A stretch of DNA of 63,839 bases, counting the filler, from Deltaproteobacteria bacterium (GTDB lineage Bacteria > JAUYMQ01), in assembly GCA_030698575.1 (NCBI GenBank). It is 11 parts of 11 records of this genome, joined end to end, with 100 filler letters (N's around TTAATTAATTAA, not from the genome) between each part and the next. Parts side by side here need not be neighbours in the genome. Positions count along the whole stretch, not along the records: positions 37,296 to 41,493 come from JAUYMQ010000355.1; 10 more parts are not named here. One strand, written 5' to 3'. The notes below the pieces were generated by a model. It saw only the letters and a list, made by a program, of their open reading frames with translations. It was not told the origin of the DNA and made no database searches. Position 1 is the stretch's first letter; each line of letters opens with the position of its first letter. The position numbers and the translations under genes are program-made. Below are positions 2,014 through 61,090 of this stretch, in pieces.

Positions 2014-2858
2014 ACCCCGGCGACTTCTTGCTCTCCGCTGGTATCCTGGGCGGAGTGGGGCTGGGGTTTGCCCTCCTGATCGCCCTTGCACACCGCCGGT
2101 TCTACGTCTGGGAGGATCCCCGGCTCGAGGCCGTGTCGCAGATGCTGCCGGGCAACAACTGCGGCGCATGCGGGTTCCCCGGGTGCCGCGGGTTCGCCGA
2201 GGAACTGGTGACGGGGAAGACGAGCCCGGCGACCTGTACAGTCATGAGTGCCGACCAGCGCGAGGAGGTTGCGGAATTAATGGGCGTCGAGGTCGGCACG
2301 GCGGCCTTGCGGGTGGCGCGGCTGCTCTGCGCCGGCGGGCGGGACGAGGCGGTCCGCCGCGCCGAATATGTGGGCCTCCAGACCTGCGCCGCCGCGGCGG
2401 CCGTGTCGGCGGGCGGGAGGGGGTGCACCTGGGGCTGCCTGGGCCTGGGCGATTGCGCGCGGGTTTGCATCTTCGACGCAATCTGGATGAGCGACAACGG
2501 GCTCCCGGTCGTGGAGCCGGAGCTCTGCACGGCCTGCGGCGATTGCGTGGAGGCGTGCCCGAAAGATCTATTCATCCTGATGCCGGCAGAGCAGAACCTG
2601 CTGGTGCAGTGCCGGAACCTGCTGGATGGGGAGCCGGCCACCGACGTCTGCCGGGTCGCCTGCAACACCTGCCGGCGCTGCGAGGCGGACGCCCCGGGGC
2701 TCATCACGATTCGCGATGGCCTCGCGGTGATCGATTACGATCGTTACGATCTGGCGAGCCCCGCCGCGGCGGCCCGCTGCCCGACGGGGGCCATCGTGTG
2801 GCTCGAGGGCCGGCAGTTCCCCGAGGCTTCAATACAGCTGGAGAAGGCGGCATCATGA
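2010..2858 (+). CDS. rnfB: RnfB/RsxB-like membrane-anchored polyferredoxin
   Basis: N-terminal TM, LPGNNCGACGFPGC FeS domain, GCLGLGDCARVC and CTACGDCVEAC 4Fe-4S motifs; ATG at 2010 overlaps the upstream stop. Confidence 0.85.
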   Translation: MNPGDFLLSAGILGGVGLGFALLIALAHRRFYVWEDPRLEAVSQMLPGNNCGACGFPGCRGFAEELVTGKTSPATCTVMSADQREEVAELMGVEVGTAALRVARLLCAGGRDEAVRRAEYVGLQTCAAAAAVSAGGRGCTWGCLGLGDCARVCIFDAIWMSDNGLPVVEPELCTACGDCVEACPKDLFILMPAEQNLLVQCRNLLDGEPATDVCRVACNTCRRCEADAPGLITIRDGLAVIDYDRYDLASPAAAARCPTGAIVWLEGRQFPEASIQLEKAAS

Positions 2859-5800
2859 AGTTCGGACGGCTAAAGAGCGAGTCTGCGGCGCCCCCCCGCT
2901 TCCCGGGCGTACCGTCGGCGGTCGACGGCAGCGAGGCCGTCGTCGCGATGGAGACGGCCGCGAGCGAAGCGGCGGGCGCGTACCCGATCACGCCCTCGAC
3001 CCAGATGGGCGAAGGCTGGGCCGCCGCCGTCGCCCAGGGCAAGCTGAACGTCAATGGGAGGCGGCTCCTCTTCTTCGAGCCGGAGGGAGAGCACGCCGCC
3101 GCGGCCGTTACGGCCGGCATGAGCATGGTGGGACTCCGGGCGACGAATTTCTCGAGCGGTCAGGGCATTGCCTACATGCACGAGTCGCTCTATGCGGCGG
3201 TGGGCAAGCGCCTCACCTACGTGCTGAACGTCGCCTGCAGGGCCATGACCAAGCACGCGCTGAACGTCCACGCCGGCCATGACGATTACCACGCCGTGGA
3301 CGATACGGGGTTCTTCCAGCTCTTCGCGAAGAACGTGCAGGAGATCGCCGATCTCAACCTCATCGCCCACCGCGTGGCCGAACTGTCGCTCAATCCCGGA
3401 ATATGCGCGCAGGACGGATTCCTGACGAGCCACGTGATCGAGTCGATCGTCCTGCCGGAGCCCGATCTCGTCAAGGCCTTCCTCGGAGATCCCGCCGACC
3501 TGATCGACTCGCCGACTTCGTCCCAGAAGATGGTTTTCGGCGCGAGGCGCCGCCGCATTCCCGAGATGTTCGATCTCGACTATCCGGCGATGCTGGGGGT
3601 GGTCCAGAACCAGGACAGTTATGCCCAGGGCGTCGCGGCCCAGCGGCCCTTCTACTTCGATCACATCGTCGAGCTGACAGAACGTGCTTTCGACGAGTAC
3701 GCCGCGCTCACCGGCCGCCGCTACACCCGCGCCAGCGGCTACCGGATCGAGGACGCCGAGTACGTCATTGTGGGGCAGGGCTCTATCGTCTGGAACGCGG
3801 AAGCCGTCTGCGACTACCTGCGCGATACCAAAAAGCTGCGCGTCGGCGTCGTAAACCTGACGATGTTCCGGCCCTTCCCCAGCGATCTCCTGGCGTCCCT
3901 GTTGCGCGGGAAGAAAGCCGTCACGGTGCTGGAGCGCGTGGATCAGCCGCTCGCGGCCGACGCGCCGCTGCTCAGGGAGATCCGGGTCGCGCTCGCGAAG
4001 GCGGTCGAGAACGGGCGGGCCCGGGGCACCGTGCCCCACGCCGGGGTACCGCCACTCCGGTCCGAGGAAGTGCCCGATTTCTACTCCGGCTGCTTCGGCC
4101 TCGGCAGCCGTGACGTCCAGGCCGGTGAGCTGGTCGCCGCGGTGGAAAACATGCTCCCCGGGGGCAAGCAGCGGCGCCAGTTCTACCTGGGCATCGACTT
4201 CGTGCGGCCGGGCACGCAACTGCCCAAGCTCGAGATCTGGCAGCAAGAGCTGCTGGCCGCCTACCCGCACCTGCCCGACCTTTCGATTCACGCCGGCGAG
4301 GACGTCAATCTGCTCCCGAAGAGATCGGTGGCGATCCGAATCCATTCGGTCGGCGGCTGGGGCGCGATCACGATGGGCAAGAACCTCGCCCTCACCGCCT
4401 CGGAGCTGCTCGGACTGCACATCAAGGCCAATCCGAAGTACGGATCGGAGAAGAAGGGCCAGCCCACCACCTTCTACGCCACGCTGGCGCCCGAGGCGAT
4501 CCGCATCAACGCCGAACTGCGCCACGTCGACGTCGTGCTCTCGCCCGATCCCAACGTCTTCCGCCACTCCGACCCGATTGCCGGCCTGGCGGACGGTGGC
4601 GTCTTTGTGCTTCAGAGCGAACGGGGCCCGGAGGAAGTGTGGAAGAACCTACCCCCGGCGACGCAAAGGCAGATCCGGGCGCGAAACATCCGCATCTTCA
4701 TGATCGACGGCTTCAAGATCGCCGCCGCGGAGGCCTCCGAGGCCGAGCACCGGTTCCGGATGCAGGGCGCGGCTTTCATGGGGGCCTTCTTCCGCGCCTC
4801 TCCACTGCTTGACGGGAGCGGGCTCGACGAGGCCCGGCTCTTCGAGGGCATCCGGAAACAGCTCGCGAAGAAATTCGGGCGCCTGGGCGAGCGGGTGGTG
4901 GAGGACAACCTCCGGGTCATCCGCCGCGGATACGAGGAATTGCAGGAGGTGGACTACGCCGCGCTGCCCGACAGCCGGGCCGAGCTGGGCTCGTTGCCCG
5001 TGATGCCCACGGAGCTCGACGCCAGCCACATGGCCCCGGGCATCGGGAACGCCGGACGGTTCTGGGAGCAGGTCGGGTTTCTCTACCGGACCGGCGAGGA
5101 CGGCATTGCCGATCCCTTCGCCGCGATCAGCGCCATCCCGGCCGCGACCAGCACGATCCGCGACATGACCGACATGCGGTTCGAGGTGCCGGAGTTCATC
5201 GCGGAGAATTGCACCGGCTGCGGACGTTGCTGGGTGCAGTGCCCCGACGCCGCCATCCCGGGGCTCGTGAACAGCATCGAGCAGCTTCTGGAGGCCGCCG
5301 TGGCGCAGCACGCCGACGGGAGGACCTTCGAGCGGATCCGCCCCGTGCTCCGGCCCCTCGCGCGCGAGGCCCAGCGCCTGCTGGCGGGGCCCACACGAAA
5401 CATCCCCGCGGCGCTCAGCGAGGCCTACACGGGCGTCGTGGAGCGCATGGGGATGGATCCCGAACGCCGCGCCGCCACCGACGCCGAGTTCGCGGTGATC
5501 CACGCCGCACTCGCCGATTTCCCGCTCGCCAAGACCGGGCCTTTCTTCGAGGTGCCGGAATCGAAGGAGAAGGGGAGCGGCGGCCTGCTCTCGATCACCG
5601 TCAACCCGGAGGCATGCAAGGGGTGCAACATCTGCGTCGAGGTCTGTCCCGACGGCGCGCTGATCACGGTCAAGCAGGACGAGGCGATCGTCGATCGGCT
5701 GCGGACCAACTGGGCCCTCTGGGAGCGCCTGCCCGACACTGACGACCGTTACGTGAATGTGCTGGACCTGGAGGAGGGCATCGGGGTTCTCAGCTCACTC

Positions 5801-6832
5801 CTCCTTAAGAAGGAAAGCTATCGCTCGATGTTCGGTGGCGACGCGGCGTGCATGGGCTGCGGCGAGAAGACGGCCATTCACCTCGTCTTCTCGGCGGTGA
5901 ACGCGCTCATGGGCCCGCGCGTGGCCCGTCAAGTGGTGCATCTCGATGATCTGATTGCCCGGCTGGACCGCAACGCCCGCGAGCTGCTCTCGGCCGACGC
6001 CGATCTCGAGAACCTCGATCAGCTCGACCTCGACAAGGCTGCCGTTCCGCTCGCGCCGGAGAAACGGGCGAAGGTCGACCAGCTGGCGCGGATGCTCCAC
6101 GACCTGAAGGATCTTCACTGGCGCTACATCGAGGGGCCCAGCGGCAAGGGGCGGGCGACGCTGGCCATCGCCAACTCGACGGGCTGCTCGTCGGTCTGGG
6201 GAAGCACCTATCCCTACAACCCCTACCCGTTCCCGTGGGTCAATCACCTGTTTCAGGACGCGCCCTCGATCGCCATCGGCATCTTCGAAGGGCAGATGCG
6301 GAAGATGGCCGACGGATTCATCGCGGTCCGCCGGGCTGAGCTGGAGCTGGCGGGCGAGTATGACCCCGAGGAGCACGAGCCGTTCTTCGAACGCTTCGAC
6401 TGGAGGCAGTTCACCGACGATGAGTTCGGCCTGTGTCCGCCGATCTTCGCGGTGGGGGGCGACGGTGCGATGCTCGACATCGGGTTCCAGAATCTCTCGC
6501 GCCTGCTGGCCTCGGGCAAGCCGATCCGGGTGGTTGTGCTCGACACGCAGGTGTATTCGAACACCGGCGGGCAGGCCTGCACGAGCGGATTCACCGGGCA
6601 GGTGTCGGACATGGCGGCCTGGGGCAATGCCCAGCACGGCAAGGAGGAGACCCGCAAAGAGCTCGCGCTGCTGGTCATGGCGCACCGGAACGCCTACGTC
6701 CTGCAGGGTTCGCAGGCCAACCCCTCCCATCTGCTGGCGGGCGTCATCCGCGGCCTCAAGGCGCGGCGCCCGGCGGTTTTCTCGCTCCACTGCCCCTGTC
6801 CGCCCGAGCATGGGCTGGCCGACGACGCGGCC
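2855..6832 (+). CDS. Homodimeric-type pyruvate:ferredoxin oxidoreductase (NifJ/PFOR-like, long form), 3'-truncated
   Basis: AYPITPST, KYGSEKKG, two CxxCxxCxxxC motifs, ACMGCGE, STGCSSVWG, GGDGAMLDIG, DTQVYSNTGGQ; likely start ATG 2855. Confidence 0.92.
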
Positions 6833-6932
6833 NNNNNNNNNNNNNNNNNNNNNNNNNNNNNNNNNNNNNNNNNNNNTTAATTAATTAANNNNNNNNNNNN
6901 NNNNNNNNNNNNNNNNNNNNNNNNNNNNNNNN
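6833..6932. other. Artificial contig linker N44-TTAATTAATTAA-N44 (also at 18436, 22342, 32733, 37196, 41494, 45750, 52807, 57556, 60991)
   Basis: Identical 100-nt spacer with six-frame stops occurring ten times. Confidence 0.99.
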
Positions 6933-8868: not shown

Positions 8869-9027
8869 CGAGGCTCCGTCATGGTCACGCGTCGGGGGGC
8901 ATGCTCCGGGCACGGTTGATTTCCGGAGGGTGCAGGCCCCTAGCGGATCCTTTCTACTCGATCCGCCGAAGCGGGGTCAAACGGTTAAATTCGGCCGTCC
9001 CACGGGGCTGGCAAGAACCGCTGCCCG

Positions 9028-9092
9028 GAGATTGCTTCGTCGGGCTTCCGGCCCGCGCTTCGCACGGGCCCTCGGCCCTCCTCGCAATGACA
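9028..9092. repeat. REP-like palindromic repeat copy (GATTGCTTCG...CTCGCAATGAC)
   Basis: Same terminal motifs as copies at 28664, 37429-37597, 41727 and 47435-47652. Confidence 0.85.
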
Positions 9093-9118
9093 GCCGTGGG
9101 AAGGGGGTGCGAGAATAG

Positions 9119-11103: not shown

Positions 11104-12675
11104 ATGAAGATTCGTGATCATTACTATGAGATCCTGAAGGAACTGGGTGAGGACCCGGAACGGGAGGGGCTCCGCAAGTCGCCCGACCGCGTGGAGAAGG
11201 CCCTTCGCTTCCTGACGGGCGGCTACCAGAAGGATCCGAAACAGGTGCTCAACGGCGCGCTCTTCACCGAGGAGTACAACGAGATGGTCCTCGTGAAGGA
11301 CATCGATGTCTTCAGCCTCTGCGTGCCAAGTAAGCAGATCGTCAACGCCGTACGGGGCGCCAAACCCGCCCGAAACCTGCGTGTGGGTGATGAGCTCTGG
11401 ACGCTGCATGAAGGCAGGATCGCAAGAACGACCATCACGAAAATCTCGAGCAGGGCCAGCAGGGATGTGGTCGTTCTGAGGACGGATAGGGGAACCTTCA
11501 AAGTGACGTCGGACCACCCCGTCATGACGGATCAGGGATGGCAGGAGGCGGGCAAGGTGGATCCGGGAGTCAGAATCGAGTGGATCAATCCCAGGTCGCT
11601 TTGTCGGAGACGCGTAAGACCGCAAGAAGGCTACCCGCTCGGATACGTCCTGGGAGCCGTTGCATCCGATGGAAGTCTGCAGGATGGCCGTCGCATCTGC
11701 CTCACTGTCACGAACCACAAATTCGCCGGCAGGTTCGCTGAGATGTTCGGCGAGGCCTTCGCGGTATCCACACCTCGCATGGAAAGAGTGAAGGTTCCGT
11801 CAGGTTACCGTGGGGAGGAGATCCAGGCCTATCGAGTTCGAGTCGTATCCCGGGACGCGGGCGAGAAACTCTGCCGGTGGCTCGGGGTCCACGAGAAGGG
11901 GGCCCGCTCGAAGACGAAGACCTTTCGTTTCCCGGAAGTAACCCTTTCCTCAAGGGAGATGTTCGCCGGATTCCTTGACGGCTACTGCGACGGAGACGGT
12001 CATTCCCTGAAGAAGGGCGGCGGACGAATGATCGTCACGTCCAACCGCGGGTTCGCAGAGGAACTGGCGCGAGTGCTGCAAACGACAATTGGGAAGGGAC
12101 ATCCCGGCATTTTCCGGGTTTACATATCGCGTCGATGGGACCAGGAAGGATGGTATGGGCGACACGGATTCCGAAAGGAGCGGGAGTTCTACGTTCCCTT
12201 CGACAGCGCCTGGGCGACGGTACTGGGGGTCGATCGTGTTCCCCGGCCGAAGAAGCCCTATCGCGTCTACGCGATCAAGTGCGAACCGCATCCGACCTTC
12301 CTGGTTGCGGGACATCTAACCCACAACTGCGAGCACCACTTGCTCCCCTTCTTCGGCAAAGCCCACGTGGCCTACATCCCCGACAAGAAGATCGTCGGCC
12401 TCTCGAAAATCGTCCGCCTGATCGAGATCTACGCCCGCCGCCTGCAGGTCCAGGAGCGGCTGACCAACGAGGTCGCACAGACCATCGCGGAGCAGCTCGA
12501 GCCGCAGGGTGTGGCGGTCGTCATCGAAGCGCAGCATCTCTGCATGCAGATGCGCGGCGTCGAGAAGCAGAACTCCATCGCCATCACCTCGGCCATGCTC
12601 GGCCAGTTCCGCGAGAACGCCAAGACCCGCAGCGAGTTCCTGGGCCTCATCCACAGCGGCATCCGCCACGTCTAA
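11104..12675 (+). CDS. folE: GTP cyclohydrolase I with an intein (187-aa extein + 336-aa intein)
   Basis: [12 protein letters not shown]|..|[32 protein letters not shown]. Confidence 0.95.
11320..12327 (+). mobile_element. Intein with LAGLIDADG homing endonuclease
   Basis: Cys1 (CVPSKQ), block B TSDHPV, LAGLIDADG-like [11 protein letters not shown] and [12 protein letters not shown]-terminal LTHN followed by +1 Cys. Confidence 0.93.
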
Positions 12676-18333: not shown

Positions 18334-18535
18334 CGCATTCGGGCGGCTGGCGTGTATCTTCCAATAACGCCGACGCGTAGAGCGCCCAACCCCCAAGCCG
18401 GGGCCCCCGTGCACCCTCCATCGGGGGGGCGCGAGNNNNNNNNNNNNNNNNNNNNNNNNNNNNNNNNNNNNNNNNNNNNTTAATTAATTAANNNNNNNNN
18501 NNNNNNNNNNNNNNNNNNNNNNNNNNNNNNNNNNN

Positions 18536-22341: not shown

Positions 22342-22441
22342 NNNNNNNNNNNNNNNNNNNNNNNNNNNNNNNNNNNNNNNNNNNNTTAATTAATTAANNN
22401 NNNNNNNNNNNNNNNNNNNNNNNNNNNNNNNNNNNNNNNNN

Positions 22442-27848: not shown

Positions 27849-28655
27849 ATGATCCAGCGTTCCATCCGAACCGCTCTCGTTTTCACGCTCCTACTGGCCC
27901 CCTCCCAGACAGCGGCCACGACGACCCCCAAGCCGCTTCCGCGGACTGCAACAGTTGATCTCGCGGTCGCCTTGCCCAGCGGCGAGCAGACGCTCCCTGT
28001 CTATCGCTTCAGCCGCCAGCCCCACGAGTACACACAGGCCATGATGTATTTCTCAGCCCCCTCCGGTGTGACCGAAGAGGATCACGAGATGGCGCGCCAG
28101 GTCGCCGAAAACGGGTGCTGGGCGGTTCTTCTCGATCTCGGGAAGCTCACTTCGAAGTTCAAGGACGAGGCGGAGTTCGATCAGGCGGTCGTGGCCATCG
28201 CCCTTGCGATGAGGAAGAGCATGAGCGACGCCATCGGGCCCAGGATGAAGGACCAGGGTGAGAGAAAGTGGCCCTATACTTTCGCCGGCCGGGGCGCCGG
28301 GGCGGTGCGCGCGTCTCGCGCGGCGATCGGCTTCGAGGCCAAGGGCAAGGTGCGGGGTGTGATGATGATCGAGCCGGCGGTCGAGGCGCCCGGAATCGGA
28401 ACCGGGGCGGCGCAGGTCGAGCATTCCCAGCTCCTCCCGAAGCTCGGGGTGGCGCCGGTGGCTTTCGCCGTCTCCGGCGAGAACGAAACCGTTCACACCC
28501 TCGAGAAAGACGTCATCGGCTACAACGCGGTGAAGCCCTCGGTCAAGGGCGGGCTCGAGTTCATCTCCATGCACTACCCGATCCGCAGGCAGCGGGCGCC
28601 CCGCACGGGGCCAGCCGTGTTCGATCCCGGCAAGCTCTTCCAGCCCGGACGCTGA
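27849..28655 (+). CDS. Secreted hypothetical protein, weak AcvB/VirJ-like alpha/beta-hydrolase fold
   Basis: Signal peptide, SD AAGGAG; FSAPSG...MARQVAENG..AV..D pattern; GRGAG in place of GxSxG. Confidence 0.55.
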   Translation: MIQRSIRTALVFTLLLAPSQTAATTTPKPLPRTATVDLAVALPSGEQTLPVYRFSRQPHEYTQAMMYFSAPSGVTEEDHEMARQVAENGCWAVLLDLGKLTSKFKDEAEFDQAVVAIALAMRKSMSDAIGPRMKDQGERKWPYTFAGRGAGAVRASRAAIGFEAKGKVRGVMMIEPAVEAPGIGTGAAQVEHSQLLPKLGVAPVAFAVSGENETVHTLEKDVIGYNAVKPSVKGGLEFISMHYPIRRQRAPRTGPAVFDPGKLFQPGR

Positions 28656-28663
28656 GAGCGCGG

Positions 28664-28719
28664 GGGGATTGCGTCGTCGGGCCTCAATACTTCCTCGGCC
28701 CTCCTCGCAATGACATGCG
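28664..28719. repeat. REP-like palindromic repeat copy
   Basis: GGGATTGCGTCG...CCTCCTCGCAATGACATGCG. Confidence 0.85.
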
Positions 28720-28885
28720 GGGCGAATGTTACGGCCCCTCGCGCGTCTTGATGGGGTGCGGGGCGGGTGGTAGCATCGTTTTTTCCCGGTTTCACGCGCG
28801 CGGGCGTCGGTCCGGATCTCGCCTCCCACCCCCCAGGGCGCGTACCCGATCCATCCCCGCCCGCATCCTCAAGAGAGCGCCTAGC

Positions 28886-32732: not shown

Positions 32733-32832
32733 NNNNNNNNNNNNNNNNNNNNNNNNNNNNNNNNNNNNNNNNNNNNTTAATTAATTAANNNNNNNNNNNN
32801 NNNNNNNNNNNNNNNNNNNNNNNNNNNNNNNN

Positions 32833-37195: not shown

Positions 37196-37295
37196 NNNNN
37201 NNNNNNNNNNNNNNNNNNNNNNNNNNNNNNNNNNNNNNNTTAATTAATTAANNNNNNNNNNNNNNNNNNNNNNNNNNNNNNNNNNNNNNNNNNNN

Positions 37296-37428
37296 GCTCT
37301 TGGGAATCCCCTCATGCCGCTCGGACGGCGAAGAGATGACTCTGGCAAGACCAGATCCCAGGCGAAACCCAGGAACGGCACCGAAGAAGACAAGGGCGAG
37401 CCCTTGCATCCCGGCGCGCTTTCAGAGA
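37296..37428 (+). mobile_element. 133-bp non-coding end of a multicopy element (probable IS110/IS1111 right end), copy 1
   Basis: Identical to 41594-41726; outward TTGCAT 19 nt from the end; abuts a truncated REP copy; structured. Confidence 0.65.
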
Positions 37429-37597
37429 TGCGAGGAGCGAAGCGACGAAGCAATCCCCTCCATGGCCGCATCTTTAGTTCCGGAGGGTGGCAAGCGCGAA
37501 GGGGATTGCTTCGGCACACCCCTGCGGGGCGTGCCTCGCAATGACATGCGAGTCCTTCCCGCGGGACCAGAGGCCACCCTCCTCGCAATGACACGCG
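37429..37597. repeat. Cluster of REP-like repeats (one 5'-truncated by the element, one inverted partner, one partial)
   Basis: TGCGAGG...GAAGCAATCCCC; GGGGATTGCTTCG...CTCGCAATGACATGCG; CCTCCTCGCAATGACACGCG. Confidence 0.85.
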
Positions 37598-37647
37598 GCT
37601 GATTTCCGCGCGAACAGACCGACTAGCGCACGAGGTTGATTTCTCAA

Positions 37648-38433
37648 ATGGACGAATCACAGGACATCCTGAAGCTGGGAAAACACACGTTCCGATCGCG
37701 GCTCATTGTTGGTTCCGGAAAGTATCCGTCGCTCGACGTGCAGCGCGCGGCCATCGAGGCGTCGGGGGCGGATCTCGTCACCGTGGCCATCCGGCGCGTG
37801 GATCTCCGCGCGCAGGGCGAGGGGAGCTTCATGGCGAGCCTCGATCTGTCGCGCACGCGGCTCCTGCCCAACACCGCGGGCTGCTACACCGTGGACGAGG
37901 CTGTCACGACCGCGCGTCTGGCGCGGGAGCTTTGCGGGACCGATCTGATCAAGCTCGAGGTGATCGGCGACGAGCGCACGCTTTTCCCCGACGCCGAGGC
38001 GCTCCTCCGCGCGGCGGAGATTCTCCTCGGTGAGGGATTCACCGTCCTTCCCTATTCGAATGACGATCCGATCCTGAACCGGAAGCTTGCCGACCTCGGC
38101 TGCCCCGCCGTGATGCCGCTCGGGGCCCCGATCGGCTCAGGGCTGGGCGTGCGCAACCCGACCAACATCCGGATCATCCTCGAAACCGTCGGCGTGCCCG
38201 TGATCCTCGACGCGGGCGTCGGGACCGCATCCGACGCGGCCATTGCCATGGAGCTCGGCTGCTCGGCCGTCCTGATGAACACGGGCATCGCCGGGGCGAA
38301 GGATCCGGTGCAGATGGCGACGGCGATGAAACACGCAGTGATCGCCGGCAGGCTGGCTTACGAAGCAGGACGCATCGAGAAGAAGCTCTACGCCACCGCA
38401 TCGAGCCCGCTCGATCAACGGATCGAGGTCTGA
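37648..38433 (+). CDS. thiG: Thiazole synthase
   Basis: [52 protein letters not shown]. Confidence 0.97.
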
Positions 38434-38441
38434 GGCCGCGC

Positions 38442-39077
38442 GTGGCCGGCGCGATGGGCGGCGTGTACTTCATCACCGACCGGCGCCGGAGCATGGGGCG
38501 GCCGGTGGCCCAGCTGGCCGCGGAAGCAGCGGCCGCGGGCGTCGGGCTCATCCAGGTTCGGGAAAAAGATCTCCCGACGCGCGCCCTCCTGGAACTCCTG
38601 CGAGAGGTGCAGGCAAGTGCCGGGGGCGCGGAGATCCTCGTGAACGACCGCGTGGATCTGGCGCTGGCCGCGGGCTGCGCGGGGGTTCACCTGGGCGCCA
38701 CGACGCTTCCGGTCGCGGCGGCGCGGAAGATCGCGCCGGGGCTTTGCATCGGTTACTCCGCTCACGCCCTCGACGAGGCGCGGCGGGCCGAGGCCGACGG
38801 GGCCGACTTCGTGACCTTCAGCCCGATCTTCAAGACCGACTCGAGCGGCGCGACAAATCTTGCGCCCCAGGGGGTCGGGAAACTGGCCGAGGTCTGCAGA
38901 GCGCTCGGCATTCCGGTTTACGCCCTCGGAGGCGTGACCGCCGGGCGCGTCCCGACGCTGATCGATGCAGGCGCTGCGGGAGTGGCGGTTGTCTCGGCGA
39001 TCACCGAGGCGCCGGACGCCGCGACCGCGGCCCGAAAGCTGGTTGAACTTGCGCGCGGGGCGTCCCCGCGGGAGTGA
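38442..39077 (+). CDS. thiE: Thiamine phosphate synthase (ThiE/TenI family)
   Basis: YFITD, IQVREK, VNDRVDLA, GVHLG, SAH, SPIF.T.S, YALGG; TenI not excluded. Confidence 0.8.
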   Translation: MAGAMGGVYFITDRRRSMGRPVAQLAAEAAAAGVGLIQVREKDLPTRALLELLREVQASAGGAEILVNDRVDLALAAGCAGVHLGATTLPVAAARKIAPGLCIGYSAHALDEARRAEADGADFVTFSPIFKTDSSGATNLAPQGVGKLAEVCRALGIPVYALGGVTAGRVPTLIDAGAAGVAVVSAITEAPDAATAARKLVELARGASPRE

Positions 39078-39081
39078 ACGC

Positions 39082-40353
39082 ATGAACGGACCGACGAAGG
39101 CCACGCGCATCACGCACCCCGACGTCCACGACGCCGCGTTCCTCTCACGCATTGATCCGGAGGTGGCGCGCATCCTTGATCACTCGCTCGCGGGCGGCGA
39201 GATCGCCGAAGCCGACGCCACGACGCTGTTTGACACCGAGGGCGCGGAGATGTCGGCGCTCCTGGCGGTCGCGGATCACCACCGGCGGGACGCCAACGGC
39301 GATCTCGTCACCTTCGTGTTCAACCGCAACATCAACTTCACGAATCGCTGCTTCGTCGGCTGCCAGTTCTGCAACTTCAAGGTCCGCGACGCGAGCCCGA
39401 AAGCCTACTATCAGGATATCGAGGCGGTCGCCCTCCGGGCCGACGAAGCGGTCGAGCGCGGCGCCACCGAGGTGTGCATCCAGGCGGGCCTCAACAAGGA
39501 TCTCCCCGGCAACCACTACGAGGCCGTGCTGCGGGCGATCAGGTCGCGCCACCCCTCTCTCCACATCCACGCCTACTCACCCATGGAAATTCATTACGGC
39601 GCGAAGCGCACCGGCAGAAACGTTCGCGATCATCTCCTGGCACTGAAGGACGCCGGGCTCGACACCATCCCCGGCACGGCCGCGGAGATCCTGGTCGACG
39701 AGGTGCGCAAGCGCATGTCGCCCTACAAACTCACTGTGGACGAGTGGGTCAACGTCGTCACAGCCGCGCACGAGGCGGGAATTCCCTCGACGTCCACCAT
39801 CATGTTCGGCCACATCGAGGAGCGGTGGCACTGGTCGCGCCACCTGTCGGTCATCCGGGATCTTCAGAAGCGGACCGGCGGCATCACCGAGTTCGTCCCC
39901 CTCGCCTTCGTTCACACGCTCACACCTCTCTATCTCGCCGGCGGCTGCCGGCCCGGGCCCACGGCGGAAGAGAAGATCAAGATGTACGCTGTGAGCCGGC
40001 TGTTCCTGCGAGGCTGGATCGACAACATCCAGGTCTCCTGGCCCAAGCTCGGGCACGCGCTCGCACAGACCTGCCTCGACGCAGGCGCGAACGATTTCGG
40101 CGGAACGCTGATGGAGGAGTCGATCTCGCGCATGGCCGGCGCCGTTCACGGGCAGTACGTGAGCCCGGATGCGTTCCGTGAGATGATCTACGGGATGGGG
40201 CGTCTGCCGGCCCAGCGGAGCACGCTCTACCGGCTGCTGCGCATCTTCCCCAAAGCGGGGCAGCCCCCGATCGTGCCCGACGAACTCCGTATTCCCTCGA
40301 CCGCCGGCGCGCCGGCCATCGACGAGATGGCTTTCTCGGAGGCGGCGGCGTGA
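39082..40353 (+). CDS. cofH: FO synthase subunit CofH (radical SAM)
   Basis: NRNINFTN, CFVGCQFC, IPGTAAEIL, NIQVSWPKLG, GANDFGGTLMEESISRMAGA. Confidence 0.85.
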   Translation: MNGPTKATRITHPDVHDAAFLSRIDPEVARILDHSLAGGEIAEADATTLFDTEGAEMSALLAVADHHRRDANGDLVTFVFNRNINFTNRCFVGCQFCNFKVRDASPKAYYQDIEAVALRADEAVERGATEVCIQAGLNKDLPGNHYEAVLRAIRSRHPSLHIHAYSPMEIHYGAKRTGRNVRDHLLALKDAGLDTIPGTAAEILVDEVRKRMSPYKLTVDEWVNVVTAAHEAGIPSTSTIMFGHIEERWHWSRHLSVIRDLQKRTGGITEFVPLAFVHTLTPLYLAGGCRPGPTAEEKIKMYAVSRLFLRGWIDNIQVSWPKLGHALAQTCLDAGANDFGGTLMEESISRMAGAVHGQYVSPDAFREMIYGMGRLPAQRSTLYRLLRIFPKAGQPPIVPDELRIPSTAGAPAIDEMAFSEAAA

Positions 40354-40361
40354 AGTTTTGG

Positions 40362-40429
40362 GCATAAAGATTTGAACAACGGAATCTTTGGAAGACGGGC
40401 ATAAGATTTGAGCATAAAGATTTGAACAA
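40362..40429 (+). repeat. Three AT-rich direct repeats GCATA(A)AGATTTGA(ACAA)
   Basis: Copies at 40362-40379, 40399-40411 and 40412-40429. Confidence 0.85.
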
Positions 40430-40462
40430 AAGATTCTTGGTTAGCCACAACGTGGAGGCAGC

Positions 40463-41493
40463 ATGATCGGACAGGGCGGACAGCTCATTGCGCGGGCGCT
40501 GAAGAACGAGGGGGTCGACACGATCTTCACGCTCTGCGGCGGGCACGTGTTCGCGATCTACGACGGGTGCATCGACGAGGGCATCAAGGTGGTCGACGTC
40601 CGGCACGAGCAGGCGGCGGCGCACGCGGCCGACGCCTGGGGGCGCATCACCGGGACCCCGGGCGTGGCGGTGGTGACGGCGGGCCCCGGCGTGACCGACG
40701 CGGTCACGGGCGTGGCGAACGCCTGGCGCGCCTCGTCGCCCATGCTCTGCATCGGCGGCCAAGGCCCCTTTTCAATGTTCAAGAAGGGGGCGCTCCAGGA
40801 GATGGATCACGTGGCGCTCATGGCGCCCATCACCAAGTGGTCGGACCGCTGCTTCGAGACGCGCCGGCTGCCCGAGTACGTGGCCATCGCGATGCGCCAC
40901 GCGATCACGGGCCGGCCGGGCCCGGCGTTTCTCGAGGTGCCGCTCGACGTCATGATCAGCAGCTCGCCGATCGACGAGGTCGAGTTCCCGACGAACTACT
41001 ACACGAACGCCAAGAGCTACGGCGATCCCGAGTACGTAGAGATGGCCGTGAAGCTCCTTCAGAGCGCGCAGAAGCCGGTCGTCATGGCGGGCTCATCCGT
41101 CTGGCTCGGTCGCGCGCAGGACGCGCTTCGCCGCTTCGTCGAAGAGGCGGATCTGCCGGTCTATCTGAACGGCATGGGGCGCGGCTGCATGCCGCCCGAC
41201 CACCCGAACTTCTTCAGCCACACACGCGGCTTCGCGCTCGACTCCTGTGACGTGGCCATCGTGATCGGCACGCCGCTCGATTTCCGGCTCGGCTACGGCA
41301 AGTCGATCCCCGAAAACGCAAAGATCATCCAGATCGACATCGACCCCCTCGACATCGGCGTGAACCGCGGCGCCGACGTCGGCATCGCCGGGCACGTGGG
41401 CGCGATCCTCGATCAGATCGTGAAGGCGATCCCCGAGATCGCCGGCCCGCGCGAGGGGCGGCGGCACACGGGGTGGATCGAGGAGATCCGCGC
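40463..41493 (+). CDS. TPP-dependent enzyme (acetolactate synthase / 2-hydroxyacyl-CoA lyase-like), 3'-truncated
   Basis: FTLCGGH, DVRHEQAA, TAGPGVTD, GALQEMD, DFRLGYG. Confidence 0.9.
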
Positions 41494-41593
41494 NNNNNNN
41501 NNNNNNNNNNNNNNNNNNNNNNNNNNNNNNNNNNNNNTTAATTAATTAANNNNNNNNNNNNNNNNNNNNNNNNNNNNNNNNNNNNNNNNNNNN

Positions 41594-41726
41594 GCTCTTG
41601 GGAATCCCCTCATGCCGCTCGGACGGCGAAGAGATGACTCTGGCAAGACCAGATCCCAGGCGAAACCCAGGAACGGCACCGAAGAAGACAAGGGCGAGCC
41701 CTTGCATCCCGGCGCGCTTTCAGAGA
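41594..41726 (+). mobile_element. 133-bp non-coding end of a multicopy element (probable IS110/IS1111 right end), copy 2
   Basis: Identical to 37296-37428; followed by a different REP copy (41727-41756) cut at the same position. Confidence 0.65.
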
Positions 41727-41872
41727 TGCGAGGAACGAAGCGACGAAGCAATCCCCTGCGCGCTCGGCATCCTTCTCGGCGGCGGAGCCCGCGTGGGTCC
41801 CGCTGTCTTGACGCTCTCCGGGTCCGGGTCTACCGTGAGCGGCGCCGGCGGAAGAAAGGAAGGAGGCTCCTC

Positions 41873-45160: not shown

Positions 45161-45849
45161 TCGCTGTTTTGCCACGGGGCGCATGCCCGTGGGGGCCCCC
45201 GGGAGCAATCCTTTCCCGGGGGCCGTTTTGCGCCTGGCGCCGGGTGTCACAGGCGGGTGATAAACGAAGAAGCAGGCCCCTCGGACGAGCCGCCGCCGGG
45301 CCCGGCGCTTCCCCCCCGCCAGTATTTCTTGACCGGGTCCGTCCGATCGGGTTTTCCTGACTGAAATTCTCCAGAGAGGCTCCCTGCCGTGACTGGACTG
45401 TCGCCCATATTCGAGCCGCTGCGGAAGGCGCGTCGCGCCACAACGCATCCGTCGTGCATGCGTCCGGATCGTCGGGCGGCGCCCGATGCGGGCGAGGCCG
45501 CCTGGGTCGCCTTTCTGGCCGAGGCCCGGGCCGCGCTCGAAGCGAGCGGGAACTGGAATGGAAAGAACGGGAGAGCAATCACGAGGCGTTTTGCGGCGTC
45601 GCTGGCCGCGCGCTTCGGCGCCTGTCCGGAGAGCCCGCGCGGGCGCAGGCGCGCGTCCACGACAGCGGCGGACGAGGGCCGGCATGTGCGGGCGTGGCTC
45701 GGCGGCTGGATCTTCGTGCGCCACGATGCGTCAGCCGATCCGGCGGCGCNNNNNNNNNNNNNNNNNNNNNNNNNNNNNNNNNNNNNNNNNNNNTTAATTA
45801 ATTAANNNNNNNNNNNNNNNNNNNNNNNNNNNNNNNNNNNNNNNNNNNN

Positions 45850-47416: not shown

Positions 47417-47434
47417 CAAGCGGGTCGCCAGACC

Positions 47435-47652
47435 CGCATGTCATTGCGAAGCGGGCCGCCCGAGGTCCCGCGCGAAGCGCGGGCCGAGAACTGGCCGATA
47501 CGACCCGACGAAGCAATCCCATGGCAGCCGCCCGCATGTCATTGCGAGGCGGGCCGCAGGCCCGACGAAACAATCCCGTGGCAGCGCCACCGGTCCCGAG
47601 CACGAAGGGGATTGCTTCGGCGCCCCTCCAGGGCGCCTCGCAATGACATGCG
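47435..47652. repeat. Cluster of three REP-like repeats (two direct, one inverted)
   Basis: CGCATGTCATTGCGA...GA(A/G)CAATCCC twice, then GGGATTGCTTCG...CTCGCAATGACATGCG. Confidence 0.88.
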
Positions 47653-47923
47653 CTTCCACCCGGTCTTTGCGAGGCCCGAGGTTCCGCGCGAAACCATCGC
47701 ACGCTTTGCGCCCGGCGCCTCCGTCCGTCTCCGAACGCGCAAGTTTTTCTCCAGCGATCCCCGCGTCATATTGTCGGCGCCCGTAAACATTCATCGTTTC
47801 CAGCGAAGTCGCGATTGGCGCAAAAATTGCATGAAATTGCCCCATTCGGAGGGGGTCGCTAGCCGCGGACGGCGCTGACGGGTCCGGGGTACACCAAGAC
47901 CGGCTTCGAGCAGAGGGGTCCGT

Positions 47924-52806: not shown

Positions 52807-52945
52807 NNNNNNNNNNNNNNNNNNNNNNNNNNNNNNNNNNNNNNNNNNNNTTAATTAATTAANNNNNNNNNNNNNNNNNNNNNNNNNNNNNNNNNNNNNN
52901 NNNNNNGCTCTTGCCGCTTGCGCGGCGTACGTAAAGGGAGAGGAT

Positions 52946-57539: not shown

Positions 57540-57655
57540 TCTGCTTATACTATGANNNNNNNNNNNNNNNNNNNNNNNNNNNNNNNNNNNNNNNNNNNNT
57601 TAATTAATTAANNNNNNNNNNNNNNNNNNNNNNNNNNNNNNNNNNNNNNNNNNNN

Positions 57656-60990: not shown

Positions 60991-61090
60991 NNNNNNNNNN
61001 NNNNNNNNNNNNNNNNNNNNNNNNNNNNNNNNNNTTAATTAATTAANNNNNNNNNNNNNNNNNNNNNNNNNNNNNNNNNNNNNNNNNNNN

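Follow-up and report, generated by a model that had tools for sequence, protein, structure and literature searches.

A putative donor-binding segment of a right-end bridge/seek RNA in an IS110-family, IS1111-group insertion sequence at a REP-like repeat

A short segment (37301–37360) of the window, the whole 63,839-nt stretch of DNA analysed here, was read as encoding the donor-binding part of the right-end bridge/seek RNA of an IS110/IS1111 element, with a probability of about 85%. Two hairpins would flank a single-stranded AGAGAUG(A) that repeats the right end of the element, as read on its top strand, together with a TG core; the bottom strand of that end would be its pairing partner. The reading was carried by related elements in other genomes, in which the strand between the hairpins and the right end of the element changed together, and in which an adjoining loop followed the target of each element.

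The window consisted of 11 contigs chained by ten 100-nt linkers (44 N + TTAATTAATTAA + 44 N; Table 1), and ORFs and repeats spanning these linkers are artefacts. The element tail opened the contig 37296–41493, and the next contig (41594–45749) opened with the same sequence. The first 141 nt of the two were identical, the first difference was at 37437, and they were alike up to 37459. This exact 141-nt overlap at two contig starts indicated an assembly break inside a longer repeat, such overlaps being a typical trace of a de Bruijn assembler at a repeat. The “133-bp element” of the first-pass annotation was thus a contig-break artefact, the visible tail of a longer repeat. In all likelihood, 37296–37430 and 41594–41728 each represent the terminal ~135 nt of a ~1.4-kb insertion sequence.

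Longer contigs with matches to this tail were present in two sequencing runs. In a groundwater run (X1), in which 67% of the sampled words were present, a contig of 1483 nt carried 37296–37459 at its positions 1309–1472; it extended 1308 nt upstream of 37296 and stopped 11 nt past 37459, inside the REP-like repeat described below. A contig of this length is the size expected of one element cut on both sides at a high-copy REP. If its left end was also cut in REP, this suggests an element of ~1.40–1.44 kb, similar in size to ISEc11 (1433 bp; PMC11187229, legend of Fig. 2). The depth of the X1 contig was 10.6, versus 7.4–8.6 for single-copy neighbours; being near single-copy, it gave no proof of a multi-copy element, and X1 may hold one copy. 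The sequence 37460–37660 was partly thinly covered in this run. In a marine-sediment run from another study (X2), a contig of 1321 nt matched 37296–37408 with 98% identity, differing solely by T>A at 37356 and by one G inserted after 37358; matches of X2 to the neighbouring gene thiG were only pieces of 90–95% identity. None of the sequencing runs listed with the stretch was recorded as RNA. A left copy of the subterminal repeat, searched for with 37412–37423 (one base off the final repeat), was absent from the whole window.

Table 1. Positions of the contig linkers, of the repeats and element features in the window (numbering of the window), and of the helices predicted in alignment A4 of related sequences (alignment columns)
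Feature	Position	Strand	Remark
Artificial contig linkers, first five	6833–6932, 18436–18535, 22342–22441, 32733–32832, 37196–37295		
Artificial contig linkers, last five	41494–41593, 45750–45849, 52807–52906, 57556–57655, 60991–61090		
REP-like copies	37431–37600, 9005–9100, 28630–28720, 47430–47680		
3′ arm of helix P1, closing the putative target-binding stem-loop	37296–37303	+	aligns with A4 columns 74–81
5′ strand of the putative donor-binding multi-loop, containing CCCCTCA	37304–37314	+	without left-end match in relatives
Hairpin 1 (UGCCG/CGGCG, loop CTCGGA)	37315–37330	+	98.3% of cells paired
Putative 3′ donor guide	37331–37340	+	co-variation with right end, four matched variants
Hairpin 2 (TCTGG/CCAGA)	37341–37355	+	two-sided changes in 2 of 4 consensus pairs
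Rest of 3′ non-coding region	37356–37412	+	sequence not kept among relatives
Local hairpin CAAGGGC/GCCCTTG	37391–37406	+	within 37356–37412
Right subterminal inverted repeat (GGCGCGCTTTCA)	37413–37424	+	kept in all relatives
Right terminal extension GAGA	37425–37428	+	4 nt, precedes TG
TG common to element and target, putative recombination core	37429–37430	+	empty copies ..GTCAT-TG-CGAGG
Right half of REP-like target repeat	37431–37459	+	X1 bin depth 2319
Second copy of right end and REP half	41594–41757	+	one difference, at the match of 37437
Helix P1	A4 columns 16–23/73–80		98.8% paired; 5 of 8 pairs compensatory
Helix P1b	A4 columns 27–30/67–70		100% paired; 0 compensatory, invariant
P2 hairpin	A4 columns 40–45/52–57		100% paired; 2 compensatory
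Hairpin 1	A4 columns 93–97/105–109		98.3% paired; 0 compensatory, 4 of 5 pairs invariant
Hairpin 2	A4 columns 119–122/132–135		97.9% paired; 2 compensatory

The sequence after 37430 belonged to a repeat family with eight copies in the window, against 0.37 expected. Intact copies read ..TGTCAT-TG-CGAGG.., the two element-bearing copies read ..CAGAGA-TG-CGAGG.., and X1 contigs matching from 37429 on carried ..GTCAT directly before it. The junction of element and REP fell on the same base in both window copies, and their orientation was alike. Comparison of empty and filled REP copies thus indicated that insertion is fixed in position as well as orientation, with TG common to element and target and with no target duplication beyond this short core. 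At the junctions of elements in two other genomes (G483 and G455), TG alone was common to both sides, which fixed the 2-nt core as TG, as the first-pass annotation had proposed; the core of IS621 is CT. For annotation of the source genome, the element accounts for two contig breaks and identifies the REP family as a hot spot of insertion.

A two-part REP pattern was found in at least 119 stretches (loci L001–L119) from genomes named as many phyla, and 173 of the 181 REP right halves at loci in other genomes were preceded by GTCATT. The REP-like repeat has the form GGGATTGCTTCG .. CCTCGCAATGAC(A), often as an inverted pair, and is not lineage-specific: Chloroflexota, Patescibacteria, Ignavibacteriota, Bradyrhizobium, Nostoc, Bacteroidota and others were among the matches listed. 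A related REP form is the target of the G492-type elements described below.

Exact-pattern scans for the element gave no match in genome contigs, in metagenome contigs or in viral contigs (0 and 0); the five stretches returned by a second metagenome scan were shown by BLAST to be chance matches of 20–22 nt, and blastn against plasmids gave no match. When the 141-mer was searched against 401 genomes of one phylum, G301 gave two 40-nt matches of 88–90% identity over 37303–37342, and five other genomes gave only 24–27-nt matches elsewhere in the query (E 1e-4 to 8e-4). G301 held four copies (C60, C107, C128 and C238), and the same search of 123 genomes of its order found one copy each in G445 and G505. 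With the G301 C60 transposase as query, viral contigs yielded no relative. A phylum-wide protein search at E ≤ 1e-60, too strict a threshold, returned the query alone, and a protein search of the 123 genomes (E ≤ 1e-30) found relatives in 18 of them. Close protein relatives (50–57% identity) were those of G459 (two copies), G492 (11 matches), G499, G483, G455, G511 and G529. In G492, five near-identical copies formed one type and two further copies another, 82% identical to it; the G492 copies had ~1346 nt in common and REP halves on both sides. Inference from relatives of the window's transposase gene, left end and target loop draws on a donor region 85–90% identical over 40 nt, or on a more distant set. 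The RNase G of the window reached no more than 61% identity in any of 151 + 15 genomes compared, and a protein atlas yielded no usable taxon for it.

In G301 C60, ~150 nt homologous to the window began directly after the stop codon of a 322-aa ORF. With NF033542, the model of the IS110 family RNA-guided transposase, this ORF scored 215.5 bits against a cut-off of 140; it also matched PF02371 and PF01548. This copy was damaged: the model match started from position 36 of 343, the first ~35 codons having been lost. The 346-aa transposase of G492 scored 234.9 bits on NF033542 and carried GLVPRENSSG, which fits the motif GL-P----SG given for IS1111 transposases in section 6 of PMC11187229. Homologues of the window stretch adjoined IS110-family transposase genes, on their 3′ side, in nine elements, and we infer that the 1.3 kb upstream of the window's own copy would likewise encode a transposase, in keeping with the 1483-nt length of the X1 contig. 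The non-coding region that followed the gene spanned 150–220 nt in all these elements; from stop codon to right end it measured about 150 nt in G301 C60, and G492-type elements had about 220 nt. The window stretch aligned within this long region downstream of the transposase gene.

The right subterminal repeat of the relatives, GC(GC)TTTCA, was mirrored by TGAAAGC(G) near the left end, and both were followed by short extensions to the termini. GCGCTTTCA/GCTTTCA was kept at the right-end position in all relatives; the left copy, TGAAAGC.., was found in G301 C60, G445 and seven G492-type elements. A sequence resembling TGAAAGCG, the inverted repeat that the first-pass annotation had tentatively placed at the left end, does stand at the left ends of relatives. 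In the cited parts of PMC11208160 (section 12) and PMC11187229, IS1111 elements are described as having the non-coding region downstream and subterminal repeats of 7–17 bp, and a bridge RNA was predicted in the right end of 93% of them. The stretch is very probably the tail of an element of the IS110 family, IS1111 group, and so belongs to a known kind of system. It is counted as an added member of that kind; the clade, although divergent, scored well above the cut-off of the NCBI family model. Among the plasmid records listed, the best relatives of the G492 transposase reached 31–33% identity, and all of the at least 5000 matching records were below 60%. The suggestion of a new RNA-guided recombinase was dropped, as this layout had been described in 2024 for the IS1111 group (PMC11187229, PMC11208160).

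All motifs named in the first-pass annotation were located at the coordinates it gave: TGGGA at 37301–37305, CCCCTCA at 37308–37314, TCCCA at 37356–37360, the hairpin GCCG/CGGC with arms at 37315–37319 and 37326–37330 (including a U-G pair), the hairpin TCTGG/CCAGA with arms at 37341–37345 and 37351–37355, and AGAGATG at 37332–37338 and again at 37424–37430. The internal AGAGATG has the sequence of the right end, in which the final base of the subterminal repeat is followed by the 4-nt extension and then by the TG core. On its own the 141-nt sequence made a weak case. Shuffled sequences folded just as well (z = +0.29 for the + strand, −1.29 for the − strand), and Rfam returned only noise for the window stretch (mir-BART10, E 5.1) and no match for the four G301 loci. 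The terminal 7-mer recurred once in the preceding 128 nt, as happened in 1.7% of 20000 dinucleotide shuffles, or in 9.8% when any of four end registers on either strand was allowed, which bears out the earlier caution that the 7-nt matches alone could be chance.

Twelve related sequences were aligned from the gene end onward (A4), and RNAalifold together with pair counts gave five helices (Table 1). In the consensus, 99.0% of cells were paired and nine pairs were changed on both sides, a result reached by 0 of 500 shuffles, although the A4 rows are related and shuffle counts therefore overstate significance; slid controls gave 34–48%. The 5′ arm of P1 was formed by the last codons of the transposase gene in the relatives. 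P1b and P2 enclosed an internal loop of 9 × 9 nt, and P1 was followed by a single strand of ~12 nt, hairpin 1, a single strand of ~9 nt and hairpin 2. Both hairpins were kept in 12 of 12 aligned rows; the invariance of hairpin 1 neither supports nor refutes its pairing. The window contig starts (37296) inside the 3′ arm of P1, whose 5′ partner lies before the contig start. The outer stem TGGGA/TCCCA, by which the segment had been delimited, did not survive this comparison: family-wide, its pairing held in only 57.8% of cells, its 5′ arm overlapped the 3′ arm of P1, and the X2 copy altered its 3′ arm (T>A at 37356 and the G added after 37358) with the 5′ arm unchanged.

Predicted single strands were then compared by coordinates with the junctions of eight elements in which both junctions were visible. 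The 5′ strand of the internal loop, as its reverse complement, matched the right junction (core plus right target) over 6–10 nt in 8/8, and the 3′ strand of the same loop matched the left junction (left target plus core) over 6–10 nt, again in all eight. The strand between the two hairpins matched the element end plus core over 6–9 nt, also in 8/8. The strand before hairpin 1 (the CCCCTCA strand, as its reverse complement), similar in length to the other three and used as an internal control, matched the left junction over only 3–5 nt and never at the junction. The matches followed three target classes, namely REP of the TGTCATGC-TG-AGCG type, AACC-TG-GATGCC and GAGGT-TG-ACATAA; the third of these is a repeat of ~150 nt with 24 matches in G301, in which empty sites were read. 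A target-matching loop just upstream of the donor segment, as had been predicted, was thus present in 8/8 relatives with that part visible, the corresponding part of the window's element preceding the contig start. Within this loop, the complement of the top strand came first in the relatives, as in IS1111 seekRNAs, for which the introduction and section 9 of PMC11187229 place the top-strand complement 5′ of the bottom-strand complement.

In most copies the internal heptamer was identical to the terminal one: AGAGATG in both copies of the window, AGATATG in G301 C107, G301 C128 and G445, AGATTTG in G301 C60, and ATAGATG in G459, both G492 types (A and B), G499, G455 and G511. One mismatch each was found in G483 (internal GTAGATG, terminal ATAGATG) and in the G505 fragment (internal AAATTTG, terminal AGATTTG); the right end of G301 C238 was missing. 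Three substitutions were therefore each mirrored at two sites 85–190 nt apart, giving four matched heptamer variants, a pattern for which a chance repeat or a single old duplication cannot account. Such mirrored changes, read from sequence, would be expected of a guide and the DNA with which it pairs. The match of AGAGATG to the right end plus TG, weak when taken alone, gained its weight from this co-variation of the two sites in the relatives: guide and right end change together across homologous ends, as the first-pass annotation had asked to be examined. Its donor-binding loop stood in the half that matches the right end, and fell in the half assigned to the left end, which was matched in 0/8 elements and not in G445. 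According to section 12 of PMC11208160, the donor-binding nucleotides of IS1111 orthologues often lie in a multi-loop, not in a simple internal loop, and a guide between two hairpins fits this placement.

Both 3′ guides (A4 columns 58–66 and 110–118) ran 1–3 nt past the TG core. After the target guide, the overrun matched the first bases of the left end, ATT, as in the recombined junction, and the overrun of the donor guide matched the first bases of the right target in most elements. It resembles extra pairing of IS621, for which a ‘handshake’ is reportedly formed.

The left end was compared in nine relatives, eight by coordinates and G445 by eye. The reverse complement of the 5′ loop matched the left end over at most 5 nt and never at the junction. 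A left end starting TG-AGGGG, predicted earlier because the 5′ loop had been taken as a guide, is unlikely to be that of the window's element, judging from these relatives. Left ends of the window type read TG-ATGTTA-TGAAAGCG in G301 C60 and (G)TG-TTA-TGAAAGG in G445, where the loops would predict TGAGAAT and TGAGGAT, respectively. In the G492 type the left extension was ATTAATA or ATTATTA and the loop varied independently of it, and G459 and G499 had the same 5′ loop with different left extensions. The 5′ loop ended in UCA (the core complement plus one base) in the window type and in UCU in the G492 type. Compared with the left end, the right end and the flanks, it gave only matches of 3–5 nt without a common register; a 6-nt match of the G445 loop to the right flank was absent elsewhere and was taken as chance. 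Among the relatives, then, the left end was unmatched by the reverse complement of the strand equivalent to CCCCTCA and the target loop was found upstream, so that one of these two predictions failed and the other held. The long subterminal repeat may serve left-end recognition instead of the 5′ loop.

These comparisons suggest how the RNA might act. The target-binding loop would sit just upstream of the donor segment, before the contig start; as in the relatives, its 5′ strand would be complementary to the core plus right target and its 3′ strand would equal the left target plus core. With this RNA bound, a DEDD recombinase would juxtapose the joined element ends and the REP target, and strands would be exchanged at TG. 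RNA production, pairing and strand exchange are all postulated here by analogy with IS621 and ISEc11.

The heptamers could instead be DNA sites for a protein, e.g. repeated transposase-binding sites, and not a guide and its partner. This is improbable, though the best of the alternatives. In its favour, the two heptamers form a direct repeat in the DNA, and the recognition of IS1111 ends is called unsettled in section 6 and the discussion of PMC11187229. It does not readily accommodate three substitutions mirrored at both sites among close relatives, nor an adjoining loop that co-varies likewise with three different targets, nor the location of the segment between conserved RNA helices. Co-variation of this sort is unusual for protein sites, which tend to be conserved.

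A miniature element of ~90 nt bounded by a 7-bp target-site duplication (AGAGATG ... AGAGATG) was judged very unlikely. Direct repeats do bracket ~85 nt, and G301 C128 starts at the internal heptamer, but in all other copies the sequence 5′ of the first heptamer was kept and continued into the transposase gene, and one duplication would not change at both copies three times. Equally poor was a chance stem-loop with a chance 7-mer repeat in GC-rich intergenic DNA. The folding energy and the 1.7–9.8% of shuffles given above would allow it for the window sequence taken singly, but not the conservation in other genomes and in a run of a second study, or the co-variation of guides and helices. Least probable of all was the right end of an IS200/IS605-type element with a TnpB guide-RNA scaffold, inserted 3′ of a motif like TCAT. 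For this reading one could cite the structure of the right end, the subterminal hairpin (37391–37406), a frame closing at 37337–37339 and insertion after ..GTCAT, but the homologous stretch follows IS110-family transposase genes in the nine elements, the relatives carry these and not a TnpB or Y1 gene upstream of the structured right end, and no TnpB-like ORF was seen beside any copy.

Read as the donor-binding part of a right-end bridge/seek RNA, the segment can be set beside described systems, each as presented in the cited parts of its source. ISEc11, ISPa11 and ISKpn4 (IS1111 elements with a seekRNA; PMC11187229) share with the relatives a transposase of ~340 aa with GL-P----SG. IS1111 seekRNA elements in that paper also have the long downstream non-coding region, subterminal repeats and short asymmetric extensions, the absence of duplication beyond a few shared bases, and the target complement of the top strand 5′ of that of the bottom strand. 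They differ from the relatives in the left extension (7 versus 6 nt after TG, or 8–9 with shared bases) and in the right extension (3 versus 4 nt before TG). They also differ from the present element in its distant sequence and REP-like target. IS621 and the bridge-RNA elements of the IS110 group (PMC11208160) likewise have a DEDD recombinase, one RNA with both binding parts, and a core of 2 nt that forms part of the guides. In the IS621 group the RNA lies in the left end and has a simple internal donor loop, whereas here it would lie in the right end with the donor strand between two hairpins; long subterminal repeats and a reversed guide order further set the present element apart from that group (PMC11208160). 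ISPpu9 of Pseudomonas putida (PMC12288879) resembles it in being an IS110-family insertion at a fixed REP position, and ISPpu10 is named in the legend of Extended Data Fig. 10 of PMC11208160. These REP-targeting elements of P. putida, likened here by description, differ in REP family and host.

The element would extend the RNA-guided IS110/IS1111 recombinases by a clade that is divergent and targets REPs. It offers natural co-variation evidence that matches a segment of an IS1111-type multi-loop, the strand between the hairpins, to the right end plus TG. This would be useful for reprogramming IS1111-type systems, in which donor recognition is less well described than in IS621.

Five loci were remnants without a transposase gene: L132 (G301 C107), L135 (G301 C128), L134 (G301 C238), L191 (G505) and L192 (G445). 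In G301 C107 the left half of the target was joined to the base after the 3′ guide of the target loop, and G301 C128 began at the 3′ donor guide, so that two remnants started exactly at guide-coding DNA; G445 held a derivative of ~270 nt with both ends and no gene. A speculative and rather doubtful reading is that guide-encoding DNA is itself a recombination site for the RNA-guided recombinase. If so, self-recognition of the guide template would be a built-in route to shed the transposase and leave small guide-bearing remnants, and, taken with the unmatched 5′ loop, recognition of the left end in IS1111 elements would seem to depend on the long subterminal repeat, with no second programmable guide involved.

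Two ORFs elsewhere in the window were also observed. The ORF at 11104–12672 (+; 523 aa) matched the GTP cyclohydrolase I family in two stretches, with a LAGLIDADG_3 match between them (residues 288–326); the insertion is probably an intein or a homing endonuclease. At 2168–6832 (+), a fused pyruvate:ferredoxin-oxidoreductase-like ORF of at least 1555 aa ran off the contig end and carried POR_N, PFOR_II, POR, several 4Fe-4S and TPP_enzyme_C domains.
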